Notes: a model not told the origin generated them from the sequence alone. A DNA stretch of 64,000 nucleotides from an uncultured delta proteobacterium (GCA_963760795.1 CAVXEP010000003.1:128001-192000), one strand, 5' to 3'. Counted from the stretch's first letter, positions 25,316 through 35,689 are shown. Numbers and translations are program-made.

Positions 25316-26762
25316 TTAGGTCCCAAAGACTTCGCGCAGGATGTCCCTGATCGCGTCGGCGGAGGTCTCATCCAATCTCGCGGCACCGGAGAGCGGCACC
25401 GTTTTGACAATCTGGCGCTGCCAACTCACCGCCCCATTTTCGATGCGCACCAATTGCATCTCCACCACCGTCCGCAGCGGCGAACGGCCGTCGGTATGCC
25501 AACGGCGGATCTCCCACAGCCACAACCAACCAGAGAGGTTGGCCGTGCGCGCATTGGCCGCGGCGCTCACACGCATCGAAAGGAAACGACTGCAAGCGGA
25601 CATCGCGCTCTTCCGGCAATGACACGGTAATTTGTCGGTGCTGGAGTTCGCGCTGCAAGGAACCACGAAGCAAGTCCATCACTGTGGGCCGGGACTCCGG
25701 CGACAGCTTGCCGGCCATCTCACCCAAAGAGCGCAACGGATTCGTGCCGGGCAAACGCAAGTCCGAACCTGTGCCATTGCGCACCGAAGCGAGCCATACC
25801 GGCCCCTGGCCCAATGTCGATGGATCAAGCGGCGCTTCAGGCCGCTGGGCGCCACAACCGGCGCACAGAGTAAGAACGAATACGATTAGCCCAGCGACCC
25901 CGCCGCCACGGCGCAAGATGGATTGCACAGCATAGACGGCGAAAATCACCACGCAGCCAAACGCCACATCGGTCGGTCCCAGCGGCAGGTCCAGGCGCAC
26001 GGATAGATAGAACCCTAGGACCGCGATGAAAATACCGATCAACGACGAGAGCGACAGAAACGAACTCATGCCGCGCGCCAAAGTGCGCGCCGCCAGTGGC
26101 GGCAGAACCATGAAACCGAAAACCAAGAGCGGCCCAGCCATGATGACGCCAATGGCAATGCTGAAGCCGCACAGAACGTACAACCAAAAACTCCACTGCG
26201 CGCTGCCGCCGGTGAGCAAGAAAGACAGATCGCGGTCGAAAGAGTTGAGTAAAAATTCCCGGCGAAACAAAACCAGACCGACATAAACCACGCCGTAAAC
26301 GATCGCCAGCAGTTTCAATTCTTCCTTGGATAGGGAAATCACTTCGCCCTTGAGCAAATTGAGGATTTCCAGCTCACCGGCCGGGTTAAAGACAATGAAC
26401 AAAATCGTCAATGCCGACGCCAGGGCGTAAGCCGCCGCGAGCCGGCCTTCCGGCGATCCGGTCGCGTGGCGATCAAGATAGGCAAGCAGTCCCATGCCGG
26501 CCAACGTGAACAACAGTGAACCGGCCATCGCCAATAGCCGTTCGCCGCCACTGCCGTGAGTGAAACCGGTGGCATGATAAATCCAAAACGTAAACGCCAC
26601 GCCGCAGGCGGCGATTTGCGGCAGCGTCAAGCCGAGGAAAACCCGCCGGCGCAGCATCAAGTGCGCACCGACCAGCGGGCAAACCAACGCGAGGATGGCA
26701 CTGCCCAGCAAAGCCGGGAAAAGCAAGAATGACGGACTGAAAATTTCCCAAAAACTCACCAT
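25316..26762 (-). CDS. Zn/Mn ABC permease (ZnuB/MntB-like) with fused C-terminal lipoprotein-like domain, frameshifted near 25560
   Basis: LMLRRRVFLGLTLPQIAACG, FRREFLLNSFDRD, GPLLVFGFMVLP, DLPLGP, then about 190 further residues starting LTLCAGC. Confidence 0.85.
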
Positions 26763-27461
26763 GGATGTTGTGCCACCGCTCCTTCCTCCCACGCCACTCT
26801 GCCACCGTCGACGCGCAGGACTTTGCTCGGCGACGCTCCGCACCATGCGTAGATCATGACTCGAAAAGAAAACGGCAATGTCTCTCATCGCGATTCAATT
26901 TGACCAGCAGATCGCTGATCGCTTTTTGCGACTCCGGATCGACGCCCGCCAACGGCTCATCCAGAAAGAGAATCTTGGGGCCGACCATCAGAGCGCGGGC
27001 GATCAGCATGCGCTGTCTCTGGCCACCCGACAGCGAAAAAAACGAGCGTCTTGCAAGATGGCTAAACCAACCTGTTCAAGCACATCGTCCAGTCGCTGTT
27101 TTTCTCGTCGCCGGTAGACCTCTGATACGGCTTTAGCCGGCCATAGCCGCCCATCGCCACCACTTCGCGCGCGGTGATCGGAAACGTCGAGTCCAGTGCC
27201 GAGCTCTGCGGCACGTAGCCGAACTCGCTGAGCGCGCAGTTGCGCACCAGCAAACCGCTGATCACGGGCAAGAAAACCCAGAATCGTCCGGAAGATTGTC
27301 GTCTTGCCGGAACCGTTGGGCCCGGCCATCGCGATAAGATCACCGGCACGAATATCGAGGTCGACGTCTTTCAAGAACCGGCGACATCCGTCGTATCCGA
27401 GGTCGTTGCTCGTGAAGACGAAACCAAGGGGAGACGCTAGCTCATCGAAGCTCTCCCGCAT
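26756..27461 (-). CDS. Zn/Mn ABC transporter ATP-binding protein, multiple frameshifts; 3' end approximate
   Basis: [33 protein letters not shown] and DEP motifs across frames. Confidence 0.85.
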
Positions 27462-27502
27462 CGGTTATGAGCGCTATCGATCATTGCATCGGAATCGATG
27501 TC

Positions 27503-28433
27503 TTAACTCTTTTTGAGCGCGGCGAGCAAACTCCTGACGTTGTAGTCGATGAATTTGATGTAGGTGTCGGTCTCCGCCGTCGCGCCGGCGATGCTTCTGC
27601 AATCGCACCACAGCGGCACCGGTCTGGCCTGCCAGCTGGCGTCGGATAGCGATCGCTTTGGGCACCGTAGATGATCACCTGCACCTTTTCCTGCTGCATA
27701 TGTTGGACCAGACCAACCAAGTGATTGGGCGTCGGTTCGATGCCCGGCTTGAGCTCGATGCTACCGATCTGCTGAAGCCCGAACCGATTGGCGAAGTAGG
27801 TCCAATCCTGATGGTAGGCCACAATCTTGACCCCTTAAGCGGCGCTGCCATGCTCTGCCAACGGACGATCGCTTTGTCCAACTCCGTCAGATAAGCCGTT
27901 CAGATTCTTGTCGAACGTCGCCTTATGCTGGGGAAAATTTCGCGCCAAGCCGTCGGCGATGTTACGCGCCATAATTCTGCCGTTTACCGGGTCGAGATTG
28001 TAGTGCGGATTGCCCTTGGATGGACATCTCCTTCCGAGCGGTCAAAGGTTCTTGGAACCTCCAGCTACATTGATGCCGTTTGAGCAATCGATATGGCCAG
28101 GCTGACCGGGCATGGATCTTGGAATTGTTCGCCACTTCCAGCAACGCCGGCAGCCATGATATTTCCAGATCCAATCCCATCGCTACGAGCATATCGGCTC
28201 GATTAAGCTTGGGCACGAAACTCGGCTTCACCGGCACCGCATGCATGAATTCCACGCCTCTGGTGAGGCTCTCCACGTCCACCAACTCTTTGCCGATCTG
28301 TTTCGTAATATCCGCCAGATCGGGGATCGTCGTGATCACGCGAATTTGCTGCGCTTCGGCTAAGCCAACCCAGCCGACCGAAACAAGCAGTAAAATTAGA
28401 TAGGCGAGAAAACGTCTTCGTAATCATTTGCAT
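27503..28433 (-). CDS. Zn/Mn ABC substrate-binding protein (ZnuA/TroA family), multiple frameshifts
   Basis: VITTIPDLADITKQIG, GNPHYNLDP, AYHQDWTYF, ELKPGIEPTPNHL. Confidence 0.88.
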
Positions 28434-28463
28434 CGATGCTTCTCCTTTAAGATAGAGCAACTG

Positions 28464-29716
28464 TTAGCGGGTACGGAATCCATGCGTATGGCTGCCCAAC
28501 ACAGTCGTCCATTGCAGAAAAAATTGGTGACCGCGCTCCGCTTTGTCTTCGCGCACCTTGTCGTCCAGGTAGCTGTATTGGAAGCGCAGCCGGTTAAATT
28601 CGCTCAGGGTCCAGGTCAAGAAACGGCGAGTAGCTGTGAGTCTTCTTACCTGGGCTCGCCAAGTTCGGCGCGTTGTCGTACAGGAATCCTGCGGACCACT
28701 CGCGGTTGAGCTTCATCTCGGCGTAGGCATAGCCGCCCGGGGCGAACATCCGGCGAAAGCCGGATTCACGCTCGACACGCTCGCTGTTGCCGAAAAATTC
28801 GGCGCCAACCGTCACGCCTTGATGCAGGGTGCTGTCGAGCGGTTGGTAGCGATAGGTCAAGTCTAAGCCACTGAGTGTCCGGCTACCGCCATGGGGATCA
28901 GACGGGATGCGAATCGAAGGCGTATAGGCCAAGCTCGTTCCCAGTTCGATGCTGTGATTATCGCTCAAATCGAAATAAGTATTGAGCCGCCCGAGATAGG
29001 TAAACCGGCTCCAGGCGCGTGACTTAGTATCGTCCAAGCGTTCGTTTTCCGCGCCGAGCTTATTGTAACCGCCAACGGTGCCGCGCAAGAAAAACGGCGT
29101 CGGGAAAAGATAACTCAACTCCGCGCCATCGGCTTTGGACTCGCCGCCGACGATGCGCTCCAAAGACAAAGGCGTATTTACAAAGGCATATTCATGGGGA
29201 TGAAACTTGGCCAAGCGGCCAAAGTCGGCGAAAAACCGCCCGCCGCGGGCTTGTAAATTCCACGGCAATGAGGTCGTCACCATCGCCGCCTCCTCGACCT
29301 CGACGCCTTCGCCGCTGCCGTTAAAAAACGCGTAGCCGCGCGCATAGGGATCGATGGAGGCCGCAATGCCGATCTCCGCCGAGCGGAAATTAAACGTCCC
29401 GCCGGCTTTGCTGCGTTGCTCGGCGGTGGCGTCGATGGCCATGCCGATGGCTGGATTAAGCGCCGACGGCGCGCTCTGTACCGCTCTGACTGACTTCTCG
29501 ACTTGATCCACCCGCGTGGCCGTCGTGCCCTTCTCTTGCTCCAACTGGTCGATTCGCTGCAGCGCCTTTTGCAGTTGCTGTTCCATGCCCTTGACCAGCG
29601 ACCGTAACGATTCGAGCTCGGTATTTTGCGCCAAGCCCGCGCTCTGAAATGAATAATAAAACGGTAAATACGGCGGACGCCACCAGTGATGGTGTCCGCA
29701 AAGCGGATGAAACCAT
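28464..29716 (-). CDS. Outer-membrane beta-barrel (metal-regulated porin-like) with N-terminal coiled coil, frameshifted
   Basis: LNPAIG...SAEIGIAASIDPY, EVEEA, FGRLAKFHPHEYAFV, C-terminal LQWTTVLGSHTHGF. Confidence 0.8.
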
Positions 29717-29746
29717 GATGAGCCTCCCTCACGAGACAACAAAATC

Positions 29747-29776
29747 CCCTCCGCTCGGGCAAACCCGTACGGAGGG
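29747..29776 (-). terminator. Attenuator/terminator-like hairpin between the leader ORF and the porin gene
   Basis: CCCTCCG..CGGG-TTTG-CCCG..CGGAGGG followed by GATTTTGTT on the minus strand. Confidence 0.5.
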
Positions 29777-29804
29777 AAAACCAATATCGCTGTAGTTTGA
29801 TGAA

Positions 29805-30103
29805 CTAGACTGAGAGTGAGAGAGGCGGTCCGCGGACAAACGGACATCGTGGCGCAGTGAAATTCCACTCGCGCATCTGCGGTTCAAGCACAACCGCAAT
29901 TTGCGGCGATGGCACAACGGTCTGGAGAATCGTCAGGCAAAACCATCTGCGCGCGCGCGCCTTGCAGACAACTGCACTGGCTGCTGAGTTGCGACGCAAG
30001 GGAGAAATGAAAATGCAGCGGGAAAAAGAAAATAAACAGCACCGCCGCCGCGCATGCGAAACGGCTGAACGGTCGTTGCTGTTCGAATTCCTAGTACCCG
30101 CAT
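29805..30103 (-). CDS. DUF2946-like leader peptide (TM, HxH, CxC, C-terminal RGPP); needs two frame corrections
   Basis: Joined frames read MRVL..FSRFACAAAVLFIFFFPLHFHFSLASQLSSQCSCLQG...PFVRGPPLSLSV*. Confidence 0.7.
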
Positions 30104-30464: not shown

Positions 30465-30493
30465 GTAAACCGATCCGCGGCTTGCGCCGTCTA
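30465..30493 (+). promoter_or_regulatory. ECF-type promoter heading the ECF operon
   Basis: GTAAAC-N17-CGTCTA (AAC/CGT ECF consensus) about 40 nt upstream of the AGGAGG-preceded ATG. Confidence 0.65.
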
Positions 30494-30535: not shown

Positions 30536-30933
30536 ATGAATAACTAAATCGATCATGGGTACGCGGATTGTTCGTGGCGACTTTGGCGCTGGCAGGCTCG
30601 CCGCTAATTGCCGCGGAATCCAAGATCACCCCGGTGGAGAAAGCCGAGTTGAGACAGGACCGCAAGGAAATTCGCGGCGACCGCCATGAGATCAAAGCCG
30701 ACCGCCGAGAGTTGCGCAAGGACCGCAAAGAACTGCGCTCTGACCGCCGAGAGTTACGCCGCGATCTCAAGAACGGCGCTAGCAAAGAAGAAATCGCCCA
30801 AGACCGCACAGAGATCGCCCAGGGCAAGGCAGAGATTAAAGGCGACAGGAAGGAATTGAAACAGGACCGCGTAGAACGGCGCCAGGATCGCAAAGAGCTG
30901 CGAAGCGATCGCCGCGACGCCGTAAAGAACTAA
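30536..30933 (+). CDS. Exported heptad-repeat protein ([LI][RK]xDR[RK]E), frameshifted in the signal peptide
   Basis: AGGAGG RBS; signal-like LFVATLALAGSPLIAA; repeats LRQDRKE IRGDRHE IKADRRE LRKDRKE LRSDRRE. Confidence 0.75.
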
Positions 30934-30946
30934 CCGGGAGTCGACC

Positions 30947-31613
30947 ATGGCATTCCTTCAAGCGGCGGACAGAACTTGAATTCTTCCGCCGCCCCCTCCA
31001 CACTGATGCGAGCGCGCGTGAATCGACGAAAGGCAGGACCAGCCAATTGGCGAACTCTGGGGATGAGGAGTTGGTGGCGTTGGCCCAACGGGGCGACCGC
31101 CGGGCGTTCGAAGAACTGATCGAGCGCCACAAACAGAAGGCCTATAATATCGCTTTGGCTTCGCCCGCGATCGCGAGGAGGCCAAGGATCTGTCGCAAGA
31201 GGCGTTCTTGAAAGCGTTTACTTACTTGAAAAACTTTGACGGCCGTTCGAGTTTCTACACTTGGTTTTATCGCATCGTCGTCAACGTCTGTCTCGACTAC
31301 AAGCGGCGCGCCAAGCGCATCTCCGCCGGCGAGTTTGACGAGACCATCGAGAGTCAAATGGAACCGTCGCATAATCCGGCCCAGCCGCTGGCGCCGGAAC
31401 AACATGTGCTGGCCGAGACAGCTTTCGCGTAAAGTCGACGCCGCCCTGCAAAAGCTGCCGGCGAAACAGCGCATGGCATTTATTTTGAAAAACAATCAAG
31501 GACTATCGATTAGAGAAATCGCCGCGACCATGGAAACCGCCGAGGGCACAGTGAAAGTGCATTTGCACCGCGCGGTCACCACGCTGCGGCAAAGCTTGGC
31601 GGAATTGGTCTAG
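30947..31613 (+). CDS. ECF RNA polymerase sigma factor, frameshifted; start approximate
   Basis: DEELVALAQRGDRRAFEELI, DLSQEAFLKAF, FDGRSSFYTWFYRIVVN; region 4 GLSIREIA...EGTVKVHLHRA. Confidence 0.92.
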
Positions 31614-31621
31614 GAGGAATT

Positions 31622-32140
31622 ATGACGGAGCGAATCAACCCGGCAGCAAGCGCCTGCGCAGACTTGGAAGCGGACCTCGTGCTGCTTCATTACGGCGACT
31701 TGGACGGCGCCGAACGCGCGCGGCTTCAAGCCCATGCCGCCAATTGCGCCGGCTGCTCGGGCTACTTGAACGAACTCGCATCGCTGCTGCCGCTGACGGT
31801 CACAGCCGACACGCCGCCGCAAGAGTTCTGGATGAACTATAACCGTGAGTTGCGCCACAAGATCGACGCCGCGGTTGAAAACAAAACTTGGTGGCAAAAT
31901 TTCACGGCGATTTTCAAACCTGGCTACCTATCCGCCCTCGCCACCGCCGCGGTGGTGGTCCTGGCGCTGACCTTCACCCTCGGTGGCGGCCTGTGGCCCG
32001 CCAAGAACGGCACGCCGGACGTTGAGTTGACTGAAGCTCTCCCGGTGGCGGAGAATTTGGAATTCTTCCGCGCCATGGATGTTTTGGATGAATTGGAACT
32101 GCTCGAAGTCATGGACATCCAAGGCAACACCGCCGCCTAG
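31622..32140 (+). CDS. Zinc-binding anti-sigma factor (zf-HC2) with TM and acidic periplasmic tail
   Basis: HAANCAGC (HxxxCxxC), TM ALATAAVVVLALTF, tail ENLEFFRAMDVLDELELLE. Confidence 0.88.
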   Translation: MTERINPAASACADLEADLVLLHYGDLDGAERARLQAHAANCAGCSGYLNELASLLPLTVTADTPPQEFWMNYNRELRHKIDAAVENKTWWQNFTAIFKPGYLSALATAAVVVLALTFTLGGGLWPAKNGTPDVELTEALPVAENLEFFRAMDVLDELELLEVMDIQGNTAA

Positions 32141-32152
32141 GGAAATCGGCGC

Positions 32153-32404
32153 ATGAATCACCGCACCTGGTTGCCTTTGACGCTATTGCTGGCGGCCGCT
32201 CAGCCGGCACTGGGGGCGACCAAGGAAACCCAGCTGCCGGACAAGGAGATGCTCCAGATCATGGAGTTTTTGCGCGAAATGGAAATGATCAAGCAGATGG
32301 AAATGATGCGCGAATTGAACCATGTCGAGTCGGTCGGCGAACAGGCCAAAAATAGCGTGCCGCCAAAACCGTCGCCGGTGAAAAAGAAGGAGCCCCCCAA
32401 GTGA
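32153..32404 (+). CDS. Small exported Met-rich protein
   Basis: Signal peptide MNHRTWLPLTLLLAAAQPALG; core MLQIMEFLREMEMIKQMEMMREL; GTGA overlap with the next gene. Confidence 0.75.
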   Translation: MNHRTWLPLTLLLAAAQPALGATKETQLPDKEMLQIMEFLREMEMIKQMEMMRELNHVESVGEQAKNSVPPKPSPVKKKEPPK

Positions 32405-33039
32405 AGCTCATTGGCAAAGCAGCGATCGCACTTGGGCTTGCGGCAGCCCTGCTAACCCCGCGGGCATCGAGCCAAGCCGCTCAACCTAGCGCGATGGCCG
32501 CTCAAAGCGAACAGGAATCTGGCGAGCGCTGGGAGAAAATGTCGCCGCAAGAAAAACAAGAAATGCGCGAGCGCTTCCAGCGCTGGAAAAACCTCGATCC
32601 CAAGGAAAAAGCCGACCTACAAGATAAGTTCGACAACTGGCGCAAACTCCCGTCCGACGAGCGGGCCGCCGCCCGGAGAAATTTCGAGCGTTTTCAGAAA
32701 CTCACGCCGGAAGAACGCGAGCGCTTACAAAAACGCTGGGAAGAGTATCGCAAGCTGCCGCCCGAACGGCGTGAAGAGATCAAACGTCGCATGCAGGCAT
32801 TGCGCGACATGTCGCCGGAGAAGCGCCAGGAACTGCGCCAAAAGCTGATGGAGCGGCGCGACCAGCGCGTAGAGGAGAAGTTGGAGCGGCGCGAGAAGAT
32901 GCGCGAGAATTTCGACAAGATGTCGCCCCATGAAAAGCAGGAGCTAAGGGAAAAATTTCGCGAGCGTAAAGACCAGAGCAGGTTCGAAGAAAAGCGGCGC
33001 TTCCGCGAGAAAATGCAAAGTGGCCGCGACAAGGAGTAG
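32401..33039 (+). CDS. DUF3106-like exported helical repeat protein
   Basis: Signal peptide; ~18-aa repeats WEKMSPQEK / WKNLDPKEK / WRKLPSDER / FQKLTPEER / YRKLPPERR. Confidence 0.8.
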   Translation: MKLIGKAAIALGLAAALLTPRASSQAAQPSAMAAQSEQESGERWEKMSPQEKQEMRERFQRWKNLDPKEKADLQDKFDNWRKLPSDERAAARRNFERFQKLTPEERERLQKRWEEYRKLPPERREEIKRRMQALRDMSPEKRQELRQKLMERRDQRVEEKLERREKMRENFDKMSPHEKQELREKFRERKDQSRFEEKRRFREKMQSGRDKE

Positions 33040-33041
33040 CC

Positions 33042-34469
33042 GTGAGCACGCCCCTCAGCCAAGAGCAAAAGATTATCCATTTCCTAAACCGCACGAGCTT
33101 CGGCCCAACTCAGGAAGCTGTCCAAAGGGCCGGCCGAATCGGCATCCGCGCCTATCTTGACGAACAGCTCACGCCGGAACGGATAACGGACAATACCGCC
33201 GACGAAAAAGTCGCGGGGTTGAAAACCATGCGGCTTAACAGCCGCGAGCTGATCGAACTCTATCCACCGCCAAGATTACAAAGGCAGCAAGCCGACCAGC
33301 AGGTCGGAATGGCCATGGAGTCCATGGAAGGCCCTCGCGTCGTCATCCTCGAACTGCAACAGGCCAAGCTTTTGCGCGCGCTTTACAGCAACCGTCAGCT
33401 CTTTGAAGTCATGGTGGATTTCTGGAGCAATCACTTCAACATCTACATCGCCAAGGGCGCCAACCGCTGGCTGACGACAGCCTATGATCGCGATACGATC
33501 CGGCCGCTGGCTTTAGGTAAATTTAAGGATTTGTTGGTGGCAACGGCAAAAAGCCCGGCGATGCTCTTTTACTTGGACAACTGGATGAGCGCCAGTCCGG
33601 ATTCGCCCGGCGCCCAAATGGGCGGGCCGAACAATCGGCGCCGCGGCTTGAACGAGAACTACGCGCGCGAGCTGATGGAGCTCCATACCTTGGGCGTCGA
33701 CGGCGGTTACACGCAAAAAGACGTTCAGGAGGTCGCCCGCTGTTTTACCGGCTGGACGATTGTCCAGCCGCGGGGCCAGGGTGTGTTTCGTTTCGAGCCA
33801 CGCATCCATGACAACGGCGAAAAGACCGTCCTGGGCCAACGCATTCCACGCGGCGGCGGCATGGACGATGGTCTGCGCGTCATCGACATACTGGTCAAGC
33901 ACCCGTCAACGGCGCAGTTCATCGCGACGAAGTTGGTCCGCCGCTTCAGCGCCGACGATCCTCCGCCGGCGATCGTCAACAAAGCCGTCGAGGCGTTTCG
34001 CCAGAGTGACGGCAATATCCCGGCGGTCCTGCGCGCCATCGTCGACGCGCCGGAGTTTTTCGCCCGCGACCTTTATCAGGCCAAGATGAAAAATCCCTTC
34101 GAGTTCGTCGCTAGCGCCCTACGGATTACCGGCAGCGAAGCGCAGGTAACGCACCAACTGCTGCGCTACTTGGGGCGCATGGGCGAACCGCTATTCCTAG
34201 CCCAAGCACCCACCGGCTACCCCGACATCGCGGCCTCGTGGGTCAGCGCCGATATGTTGCTGACGCGCATGAACTTCGTCACCGATCTGGTCGCCAACCG
34301 ATTACCCGGAGCCAAAGTGCCGGCGGAAACGCTGAACAATCGCGACGGGCTGATCCGCCGCATCGCGCCGGATTCGCTATCGCCGGCGACTCAAACTGCT
34401 CTGGCCGAGACCGACGGCAATCAAGCTATTGCGCTGTTGCTAGCGGCGCCGGAATTTCAAAGGAGGTAG
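33042..34469 (+). CDS. DUF1800 family protein
   Basis: HFLNRTSFG, MVDFWSNHFN, SPAMLFYLDN, NENYARELMELHTLG, ends APEFQRR. Confidence 0.93.
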   Translation: MSTPLSQEQKIIHFLNRTSFGPTQEAVQRAGRIGIRAYLDEQLTPERITDNTADEKVAGLKTMRLNSRELIELYPPPRLQRQQADQQVGMAMESMEGPRVVILELQQAKLLRALYSNRQLFEVMVDFWSNHFNIYIAKGANRWLTTAYDRDTIRPLALGKFKDLLVATAKSPAMLFYLDNWMSASPDSPGAQMGGPNNRRRGLNENYARELMELHTLGVDGGYTQKDVQEVARCFTGWTIVQPRGQGVFRFEPRIHDNGEKTVLGQRIPRGGGMDDGLRVIDILVKHPSTAQFIATKLVRRFSADDPPPAIVNKAVEAFRQSDGNIPAVLRAIVDAPEFFARDLYQAKMKNPFEFVASALRITGSEAQVTHQLLRYLGRMGEPLFLAQAPTGYPDIAASWVSADMLLTRMNFVTDLVANRLPGAKVPAETLNNRDGLIRRIAPDSLSPATQTALAETDGNQAIALLLAAPEFQRR

Positions 34470-34471
34470 AA

Positions 34472-35689
34472 ATGAACTCCTCGCGCCGCCATTTTTTACA
34501 ATCCACCGGTTTGGGCTTTCTTGCCCTGGGCTTACCACCGGCGTTTCTCGTCCGCACTGCGCAAGCACAGTCGGCAAAGAACAAATCTCTCGTCGTGGTG
34601 TTTCAGCGCGGCGCCATGGATGGCTTGAACGTGGTCATTCCGTTCAAGGATCCGGCCTATTACCAACTCCGCCCGAGTATCGCCGTGCGCGAACCTGGAT
34701 CGAATGATGAAAGCGCCATCGATCTCGACGGCTTTTATGGAATGCATCCGGCGTTGGCGTCGCTAAAAAGCATCTATGACAAAGGCCATTTGGGTTTTAT
34801 TCAGGCGACCGGTTCGCCCGATAACACGCGTTCCCATTTCGACGCCCAGGACTACATGGAGATCGGCACGCCGGGCATCAAAAGCACGCCGGACGGCTGG
34901 CTCAACCGCTGTTTACTGGAAAGCAGAAAAAACCAATCGCACTTTCGCGGCATCGCCGTTACCGCACAGCTACCACGCATGTTGTCAGGCCGAGCGCCGG
35001 CGCTAACGCTGTCGTCCATCGAGGAGTTTCGCTTCCGCAATGAAGCCCTGGGCAAGGCTTTGCAGAAACTCTACGCCAACACCCAGGACCGCGAGCTCCG
35101 CTTCGGCGCCGAGAGTCTCTTTGGCGCGATGACTGAGCTCAAACGACTCGATGCCAAAATACCGCTCTCGGCGGAACGCTACCCGGCGGGCCGATTTGGC
35201 ACCGGCCTGGCCCAGATCGCCCGCTTGATCAAAGCCGATGTCGGTTTGGAACTCGCTTTCACCGAGATCGGCGGCTGGGATACCCACGCCAACGAGGGTG
35301 GCGCCACCGGCCAGCTGGCCAATCGGCTGAAAGAATTGGCCGAAGGGCTCGCGGCATTTTACCGCGACCTCGGCGACCGCATGGACGATGTCGTGCTGCT
35401 GACGATGTCGGAGTTCGGCCGCACCGCGCGGGAGAATGGCAATCGCGGCACCGACCACGGCCACGCCAACGTGATGTTTGCCATGGGCAGCCGCGTGCGC
35501 GGCGGCAAAGTCTACGGCCGCTGGCCCGGCCTCGCGCCGGAAATCCTTAACGAAGGAAGAGACCTCGCTCTCACCACGGACTTCCGCACGGTCTGCGGCG
35601 AAGTGCTGACACGCCATCTTGGCCAGAAAGACCTGAGCAAAATTTTCCCAGGTTTTAGCGCGAGTACAAAATTGGGATTACTAACCTAG
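34472..35689 (+). CDS. DUF1501 family protein with Tat signal
   Basis: SRRHFL, FQRGAMDGLN, RSHFDAQ, GGWDTH, SEFGRT, GTDHG, WPGL. Confidence 0.93.
   Translation: MNSSRRHFLQSTGLGFLALGLPPAFLVRTAQAQSAKNKSLVVVFQRGAMDGLNVVIPFKDPAYYQLRPSIAVREPGSNDESAIDLDGFYGMHPALASLKSIYDKGHLGFIQATGSPDNTRSHFDAQDYMEIGTPGIKSTPDGWLNRCLLESRKNQSHFRGIAVTAQLPRMLSGRAPALTLSSIEEFRFRNEALGKALQKLYANTQDRELRFGAESLFGAMTELKRLDAKIPLSAERYPAGRFGTGLAQIARLIKADVGLELAFTEIGGWDTHANEGGATGQLANRLKELAEGLAAFYRDLGDRMDDVVLLTMSEFGRTARENGNRGTDHGHANVMFAMGSRVRGGKVYGRWPGLAPEILNEGRDLALTTDFRTVCGEVLTRHLGQKDLSKIFPGFSASTKLGLLT

Follow-up and report, generated by a model that had tools for sequence, protein, structure and literature searches.

Why would a bacterium export a small protein that repeats the part of an anti-sigma factor lying outside the membrane? 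The question is raised by a stretch of 64,000 nucleotides (the window) of an uncultured delta proteobacterium (GCA_963760795.1 CAVXEP010000003.1:128001-192000), which belongs to a metagenome-assembled genome (MAG) of 6.58 Mb in 35 contigs, 88.9% complete and with 6.15% contamination. In it, the anti-sigma factor of an extracytoplasmic function (ECF) sigma factor is followed by a small exported protein and by an exported protein of the family DUF3106. The small protein appears to be a paralogue of the periplasmic tail of the neighbouring anti-sigma factor, exported as a free protein. With a probability of about 0.4, its helix of six-residue repeats (hexads) competes for, or occupies, the site at which the tail docks on DUF3106, and thereby tunes the release of the sigma factor. 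The features concerned are the following.

31622..32140, plus strand: class I (zf-HC2) anti-sigma factor, 172 amino acids (Pfam PF13490, 24.6 bits against a cut-off of 22.2, residues 12-45)
32051..32116, plus strand: acidic hexad-repeat tail motif ENLEFFRAMDVLDELELLEVMD, anti-sigma residues 144-165
32153..32404, plus strand: small exported protein, 83 amino acids (homologs, coding selection, signal peptide)
32237..32326, plus strand: conserved core of the small protein, PD-x-E-M-L and then hexads, residues 29-58, collinear with the anti-sigma tail
32401..33039, plus strand: exported DUF3106 protein, 212 amino acids (Pfam PF11304, 89.4 bits against a cut-off of 24.3, E 2.5e-25)

The original prediction for this locus had aligned a 22-residue segment of the anti-sigma tail without gaps to a segment of the small protein. 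Both segments were found where it had placed them, at residues 144-165 of the anti-sigma factor (32051-32116) and residues 35-56 of the small protein (32255-32320), and its ungapped alignment is the best of all registers, having a BLOSUM62 sum of 39. In 5000 composition-preserving shuffles, this sum was never matched when the small protein alone was shuffled, and it was matched three times when both proteins were. A BLASTP comparison of the anti-sigma factor with the small protein gave no alignment at E<=100, because the segments are too short and biased, and the comparison was therefore based on shuffles and profiles.

The similarity persists when alignments of homologs are compared with each other. 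Upon aligning 26 small proteins with 30 anti-sigma sequences, hhalign gave an E-value of 1.6e-5 and a probability of 79% over 43 columns; with a 73-sequence alignment of the small proteins the values were 6.3e-5 and 64.5%. The real tail scored 24.5 and the reversed tail 7.7. Column-shuffled tails had a mean score of 9.0 (standard deviation 2.1, maximum 17.7), and none of the 200 reached the score of the real tail. The hhalign register starts from a shared P-D-x-E-[L/M] and is offset by one hexad from the ungapped one; the element being a repeat, high scores are obtained in either register. In the hhalign register the whole mature small protein is collinear with the whole periplasmic tail.

The six-residue periodicity that had been proposed is genuine, the unit being h-[D/E]-h-h-x-x in both segments. 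Three perfect hexads occur in only two of the 55,140 stop-to-stop frames of at least 60 amino acids in the 6.58-Mb genome, namely these two neighbouring genes; since the pattern was derived from the same two sequences, this count shows rarity and is no independent test.

The anti-sigma factor has its H-x3-C-x2-C domain in the cytoplasm; a single hydrophobic span (residues 102-125, approximately) is followed by a tail of 47 residues in the periplasm. Its homologs number 322 at E<=0.001. In an alignment of 30 of them H38, C42 and C45 are invariant and the tail motif, which has a hexad score of 12/12, is nearly so. The gene starts at 31622, directly after the end of the sigma gene at 31613, and this order is identical in all 20 related loci. 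The zinc motif and the gene position place the predicted protein in class I.

The small protein is composed of a signal peptide (likely cleaved between ALG and ATKE), a hexad-repeat helix and an end that is basic and rich in Pro and Lys. In a protein collection clustered at 90%, 25 homologs were found at E<=0.01. Among 1.84 billion proteins, a hidden Markov model (HMM) of the 40-residue core matched 108 cluster representatives (E<=0.001), which are mostly about 80 amino acids long and carry the motif at about residues 25-64. Four longer matches (P0157, P0215, P0182 and P0211) are frameshift read-throughs and no fusions. Across 17 orthologs, synonymous codon differences number 1068 in the annotated frame versus 312 and 280 in the other two frames. 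The gene is thus judged from its sequences to be a real coding family with an exported product. Pfam and NCBIfam hold no family for it, and its clusters in the protein atlas are all unnamed, mostly from Candidatus Binatota. Contigs from RNA libraries also cover the gene, although such contigs are no proof of transcription: one from X13 (rhizosphere metatranscriptome; 1683 bases, window 30655-32339) begins in gene 1 of the operon and takes in the greater part of the small gene, and contigs of a second library, X17, span the junction between the small gene and that of DUF3106.

AlphaFold2 predicts a single helix at residues 31-66 of the small protein. The predicted local distance difference test score (pLDDT) is about 91 at residues 31-50 and has a mean of 68.8, the remainder being poorly defined. 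As read from the pattern of the 73-member alignment, hydrophobic positions encircle the predicted helix, which would therefore need a partner or self-association.

Gene neighbourhood of the hexad tail

In 20 related loci the genes are arranged in the order charged-repeat protein, sigma factor, anti-sigma factor, small protein, DUF3106, DUF1800 and DUF1501. The small gene is present in 17 of these loci, the exceptions being L011, L016 and L023. DUF1800 was found downstream in 16, and the DNA of L007 and L024 ends before that position. The stop codon of the small gene overlaps the start codon of the DUF3106 gene (RTGA, that is, GTGA or ATGA) in 16 of 16 loci and in the window, where a GTG start overlaps the TGA stop. 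The small protein and DUF3106 are probably made together. An AAGGAG lies 8-9 bases upstream of the DUF3106 start, within the last Lys-Lys-Glu codons of the small gene, in all but L022. Conservation of the basic C-terminus may thus partly serve the ribosome-binding site of the next gene. What the sequences themselves show is the identity of the motif and how well it is conserved, together with the signals for export, the order of the genes and their coupling.

The same genome contains a paralogous module, which consists of a sigma factor, a zf-HC2 anti-sigma factor with a hexad-like tail, and a DUF3106 protein of 90 amino acids. It has no small gene, suggesting that the tail and DUF3106 are the core pair.

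The association extends to more distant genomes. In a sample of 301 genomes from the same phylum, DUF3106 is present in 69 and the small-protein profile has matches in 7. Five weak matches of the profile fall outside the family, all of them within clusters of sigma factor, anti-sigma factor and DUF3106, where they correspond either to the C-terminal tail of the anti-sigma factor or to a small open reading frame (ORF) between the anti-sigma gene and DUF3106. A profile built from small proteins alone thus finds the zf-HC2 tails of distant families, at genome-level E-values of 1e-4 to 4e-7.

The highest-scoring DUF3106 matches of this sample, the window's own excluded, gave 29 further loci, which were scored with a hexad pattern derived from the window's own sequences. 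Directly upstream of DUF3106, 17 of the 29 have a zf-HC2 frame with a hexad score of at least 11/12; one more scores 10, another scores 8, and one locus is cut off upstream. The remaining nine carry instead a single-pass protein of the DUF3619 type, having a short tail with a related h-[D/E]-F-Y-x-x repeat. In L034 this protein matches Pfam DUF3619 with 24.7 bits (cut-off 22.2), and in L036 and L040 it falls slightly under the cut-off.

A free small hexad ORF is situated directly upstream of DUF3106 in six of the 29 loci (L043, L044, L045, L047, L048 and L049). In five of them it lies between the anti-sigma gene and DUF3106, the sixth, L044, being cut off upstream. Such an ORF also occurs in L025 and L028, L025 being the same site as L047. 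Taken together, the distant loci link the hexad tail with DUF3106 through their shared gene neighbourhood, well outside the window.

Two further kinds of small ORF were noticed. The DUF3619-type loci L032, L033 and L034 have, between the gene of the DUF3619-type protein and that of DUF3106, a small ORF whose exported product carries an E-F-L / D-F-L motif and looks like another free tail-like peptide, separate from the first. In two related genomes, at L027 (3392-3682, minus strand) and L029 (3692-3889, plus strand), a short ORF between the anti-sigma gene and DUF3106 carries T-x-N-L-[ED]-F-F-L-E, resembling the tail of the Binatia anti-sigma factor. No signal peptide is evident in this ORF.

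DUF3106 and the proposed contact

The original prediction described the downstream protein as a DUF3106-like, Arg/Lys-rich helical repeat, and this description holds. In addition to the Pfam match, the mature protein of 187 residues has 56 Lys and Arg and 44 Asp and Glu, giving a net charge of +12, and an 18-row alignment assembled from the loci resolves it into about eight helical repeats of 18 residues. The AlphaFold2 model, folded from the same alignment, has eight short helices and a pLDDT of 83.9, so that it is confident locally, but a predicted template modelling score (pTM) of 0.42, which leaves the arrangement as a whole uncertain. A search for homologs had given only nine matches, because word seeding works poorly on the repeat sequence, and tblastn of DUF3106 against plasmids gave none. 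The charges of the prospective partners are complementary, being -9 for the whole anti-sigma tail and -3 for the small core.

The element shared by the tail and the small protein would be a helix of three to five hexads h-[D/E]-h-h-x-x that is buried by a partner. The hexad helix is characteristic of those anti-sigma factors whose genes lie beside DUF3106. In the mechanism proposed here it would be the part that docks on DUF3106, with its basic, 18-residue helical repeats. The free copy, made together with DUF3106 by way of the overlapping stop and start codons, would occupy the site of the tail or compete for it, and would thus determine how much DUF3106 is available to the membrane-bound tail. 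The level of free DUF3106 would in turn tune the release of the ECF sigma factor. Binding of the tail to DUF3106, competition between the tail and its free copy, and the direction in which sigma activity changes are steps that the mechanism supposes.

That the free copy binds DUF3106 was part of the original prediction, and it is weakly suggested by a predicted complex as well as by the translational coupling. Residues 30-212 of DUF3106 and 23-83 of the small protein gave interface scores (ipSAE, interaction prediction score from aligned errors) of 0.39, 0.39 and 0.41, versus 0.01, 0.00 and 0.00 for three controls, so that the lowest of the three runs, 0.39, compares with 0.01 for the best control. 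At least 91% of the contacts are common to the runs, and the pLDDT of the partner is at least 63. In calibration, 58 of 80 solved complexes and 2 of 110 mismatched pairs passed the mark. At values of <=0.60 there were 7 of the 80 solved complexes together with both passing mismatches, these counts being only a rough guide since custom alignments were used for the complex.

Several observations weigh against the proposed competition. According to the same calibration, a pass such as this one would be wrong more often than right unless the interaction were likely beforehand. No groove can be read from the DUF3106 model, given its pTM of 0.42, and neither fold search with that model gave an informative match: Foldseek returned nothing at E<=0.001 (CpxP, 3qzc, at E 2.8 and Spy, 6bie, at E 6.5 were not significant), and a wide fold search (VIA) returned only generic long-helix or coiled-coil matches with Z<7. 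Five long open frames were inspected for natural fusions of an anti-sigma factor, or its hexad tail, with DUF3106, and all five are high-GC read-throughs around ordinary DUF3106 genes. The core HMM, run against the 1.84 billion proteins, found no anti-sigma tail at E<=0.001, only free small proteins or frameshift chimeras. When small proteins were compared with their own and with foreign tails, the cognate tail ranked first in two of nine comparisons; small proteins are no nearer to their cognate tails, and so there is no sign of lineage-specific co-adaptation. Finally, three of the 20 close relatives are without the small gene and have kept the remainder of the cluster, which makes the gene dispensable. 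The ranking in two of nine comparisons also leaves unsupported a history of independent, recent duplications of the tail into a free copy.

A wider form of the same reading would be a partner switch by tail mimicry in the periplasm. DUF3106, acting as a sensor or gatekeeper, would hold the tail, and the soluble copy made from the sigma factor's own operon would draw DUF3106 off the tail (or hand it over), with feedback thereby built into the system. The switch would also operate in other zf-HC2-type systems and in those of the DUF3619 type (ECF37). In this breadth the proposal is tentative and somewhat unlikely.

Alternatively, the small helix, the anti-sigma tail and DUF3106 could form a ternary complex, in which the free helix is a structural subunit that completes the sensor and is no decoy. 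A helix that is hydrophobic all round cannot stay alone in water, and the coupled translation suits a fixed stoichiometry. Furthermore, the eight or so repeats of DUF3106 in the window leave room for more than one helix, whereas the DUF3106 of the paralog without a small gene has about three. However, the length of DUF3106 is independent of the small gene elsewhere, frames of 165-237 amino acids occurring without it, and in the three close relatives that lost the small gene no change can be seen in the tail or in DUF3106. Such a complex seems to us distinctly unlikely.

A further possibility is that the free helix is a dedicated chaperone or stabiliser of DUF3106, helping it in folding or export without any direct part in signalling. 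A protein in want of a core helix could well give the low pTM that DUF3106 has by itself, and both the coupled translation and the weakly predicted binding are as expected of a helper. Nevertheless, this would leave unexplained why an anti-sigma tail should be copied over 40 collinear positions, including the P-D-x-E anchor, and many DUF3106 genes are without a small partner. We regard this role as improbable.

The two helices, both acidic and Leu/Met-rich, might instead share their period by chance, the small protein having some unrelated periplasmic role. The blank BLASTP result, the hhalign probabilities of only 64-79% and the origin of the counted hexad pattern in these very sequences would all agree with chance. 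It would not account for the column-shuffled controls, for the shared anchor and collinearity, or for the repeated appearance of the pairing in separate lineages, each time with the anti-sigma gene on one side and DUF3106 on the other, and convergence is consequently given very little weight.

The original prediction went on to suggest that the Met-rich free copy is a decoy toggled by oxidation of its methionines (HOCl) or by Cu(I)/Ag(I). The window's core does have 9 Met in 25 residues, and M33 is kept in 65 of the 73 family members. However, family members differ in the number of Met in this core (1 to 9, median 5), some having 1-2, and in each Met column other members have Leu, Ile, Val or Trp. 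Distant free copies are rich in Leu and Ile, and in one lineage the anti-sigma tail is as Met-rich as the free copy. Binders of Cu(I)/Ag(I) of the SilE/PcoE/CusF kind are rich in Met and His and have conserved ligand positions; in the small family the Met positions are not conserved, there is no conserved His or Cys beside them in the 73-member alignment, and there is no Pfam family. Among 19 neighbouring proteins (Pfam, window about 20600-42600) no copper, silver or methionine-sulfoxide gene was found, the neighbours including a ZnuA/ABC-3-type uptake system, a 424-amino-acid frame without a Pfam match, DUF1800 and DUF1501. The conserved property of the core, as read from the alignment, is its hydrophobic and acidic pattern rather than methionine chemistry, and a methionine switch deserves hardly any credence.

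Operon, promoter and state of the sequence

The other features of the operon and its flank are listed below.

30465..30491, plus strand: candidate ECF-type promoter GTAAACC-N16-CGTC in the upstream region of the operon (pattern match only)
30568..30933, plus strand: charged repeat protein, exported, with DRKELRx-type repeats, gene 1 of the operon (ORF; homologs)
31047..31613, plus strand: ECF sigma factor gene, lying over two frames in the window (three ORF pieces; Pfam Sigma70_r4_2, E 8.1e-17)
33042..34469, plus strand: DUF1800 protein, next in the conserved cluster (Pfam, E 6.5e-136)
34472..35689, plus strand: DUF1501 protein with a twin-arginine-like start, MNSSRRHF... (Pfam, E 2.2e-33; kept downstream in relatives)

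GTAAACC-N15/16-CGTC precedes the operon of the window (at 30465) and also that of 19 of the 20 related loci, of L030 and of the paralogous module of the same genome (L003). The whole genome has 13 strict matches. The ECF sigma factor probably drives its own operon, as far as a promoter pattern can tell. An earlier pattern, [TG]GAA[CT]-N15-18-CGT[CAT] or TGTC, was abandoned, having one match (L013) and none in the window or in nine other loci; the one used in its place was suggested by the description of the group ECF37.

Two of the 13 strict sites, on contigs C4 (about 221032, minus strand) and C28 (about 96256, plus strand), precede genes for exported proteins. One of these proteins has 149 amino acids with a charged repeat and resembles the first gene of the operon. 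The other has 170 amino acids and is Spy/CpxP/ZraP-like, with a weak match to Metal_resist (25.5 bits, below the cut-off of 29.2) and to LTXXQ. The two sites hint that the sigma factor drives a periplasmic stress set. In L023 a second GTAAACC-N16-CGTC lies just past the DUF3106 gene (4927), and the genes downstream may have a sigma-dependent promoter of their own.

Two one-base indels, near 31151 and near 31413, compensate each other and split the sigma gene of the window, which is a single ORF in related loci. Contigs from other public runs have an extra A behind 31151 (X1, X2 and X13) and one base less at 31413 (four of four runs), restoring one sigma frame. NCBIfam gave only general ECF-type matches to this gene, all under the equivalog cut-offs. 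The first gene contains an in-frame TAA and a further shift between the ATG at 30536 and the listed TTG start at 30568 (30536-30580). Its relatives begin with M-N/K-N-K-S and have a signal peptide; homologs with a signal peptide are found upstream of the sigma gene in 15 of the 20 related loci (E<=1e-6). The true start is likely the ATG at 30536, the 5' end of the gene being disturbed in the window. Several neighbouring genes are also fragmented in the window. The indels, the disturbed start and the fragments are likely to be assembly errors, and a strain-specific defect may be their alternative source. The spacer before the sigma gene differs from the contigs of other runs by two more single bases (30936 and 30971). 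The anti-sigma, small and DUF3106 genes are intact.

On the minus strand, divergent from the operon, window 25368-29868 carries a fragment of a ZnuA-like binding protein, a fragment of an ABC ATPase, an ABC-3 permease and the 424-amino-acid frame. The ZnuA-like gene and the 424-amino-acid gene adjoin the operon in 15 of the 20 related loci. No promoter of the GTAAACC type was seen before these divergent genes.

Comparison with known systems

ECF sigma factors are among the commonest signalling devices of bacteria, and for most groups the step outside the membrane is obscure. In the RseA-RseB pair of Escherichia coli and in CpxP-CpxA, the response of a membrane regulator to envelope stress is gated by a soluble protein that binds the regulator's part in the periplasm. 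We know of no free copy of the bound segment in either. No relation in sequence or fold was found between RseB/CpxP-type systems and the proteins of the window. In particular, DUF3106 has no match to LTXXQ or Metal_resist in Pfam at E<=0.1. The module of the window is of a known kind, an ECF system with a periplasmic accessory protein, to which a tail mimic would be added.

The closest described arrangement is the group ECF37. It has a putative anti-sigma factor with a DUF3619 or RskA-like domain in position +1 and a conserved soluble DUF3106 protein in position +2, and its studied member, RpoR of Cupriavidus metallidurans, is concerned with cobalt/nickel resistance and with protecting iron-sulfur clusters (PMC7826278). 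The portion of that article covered here shows the same three-part gene order with DUF3106 as in the window, and a predicted autoregulatory promoter of similar shape, TGTCAACC / CGTT in ECF37 compared with GTAAACC-N16-CGTC in the window. However, the +1 protein of the window matches zf-HC2 only, and neither DUF3619 nor an RskA-like domain. DUF3106 occupies position +3, the extra small gene being +2, although in the paralog of the same genome it is in +2. Furthermore, the ECF37 members described there are from Proteobacteria and Nitrospirae, whereas the MAG is from Candidatus Binatia/Binatota.

The original prediction presented the mechanism as one not known to be described. The order sigma factor, anti-sigma factor and DUF3106 is already that of ECF37 (PMC7826278), and to this extent the claim is to be narrowed. 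The tail motif and its free copy were not found in the literature searched, and they are the part that appears new. The supplement of PMC7826278, in the portion covered, names DUF3106 only under ECF37 and without a tail motif or free copy, and its remainder may contain other groups with DUF3106. A search of the literature outside subscription papers for DUF3106 or DUF3619, by name and by Pfam/InterPro accession, yielded nothing relevant. Judged by titles and the openings of abstracts, no paper in the literature searched describes a copy of an anti-sigma tail acting as a periplasmic decoy.

DUF3106 has for years been listed as a conserved neighbour of ECF37 without a role. The acidic hexad helix on the tails of at least two classes of anti-sigma factor beside it provides a concrete contact that can be tested. 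If the switch by tail mimicry is true, it would be a first function for DUF3106, for the DUF3619 tail and for the unnamed family of small proteins. A free copy that competes with the tail would also be a compact peptide handle for probing or re-wiring sensors; if there is no competition, the motif still indicates where a binding site of DUF3106 might be sought.

A contact of this kind is known from the CnrY-CnrX-CnrH system of Cupriavidus metallidurans. The anti-sigma factor CnrY crosses the membrane once, and its C-terminal part, short and periplasmic, docks into CnrX, an all-helical periplasmic sensor; the signal is passed on by a change in this contact (PMC6851896). The insertion of a tail into a helical periplasmic protein resembles the docking proposed here for the tail and DUF3106. 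The two receptors differ: CnrX is anchored in the membrane and uses His, Glu and Met to bind Ni/Co, whereas DUF3106 is exported with a cleavable signal peptide and gave, in searches by fold and by family, no significant match to CnrX, CpxP or Spy. The part of PMC6851896 covered describes no free copy of the tail.

The nearest parallel to the proposed competition is the 'sigma factor mimicry' of PhyR, NepR and sigma EcfG in Alphaproteobacteria, a partner switch (PMC4814048, PMC4551977). There an ECF sigma factor is regulated by a mimic of one partner that takes the other away, and regulation of this sort is what is proposed here. As these sources describe it, PhyR copies the sigma factor, acts in the cytoplasm and is switched by phosphorylation; by contrast, the copy proposed here is of the outer tail of the anti-sigma factor and is periplasmic. 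If the free copy does compete with the tail, the small protein would be a periplasmic counterpart of the cytoplasmic mimicry of PhyR.

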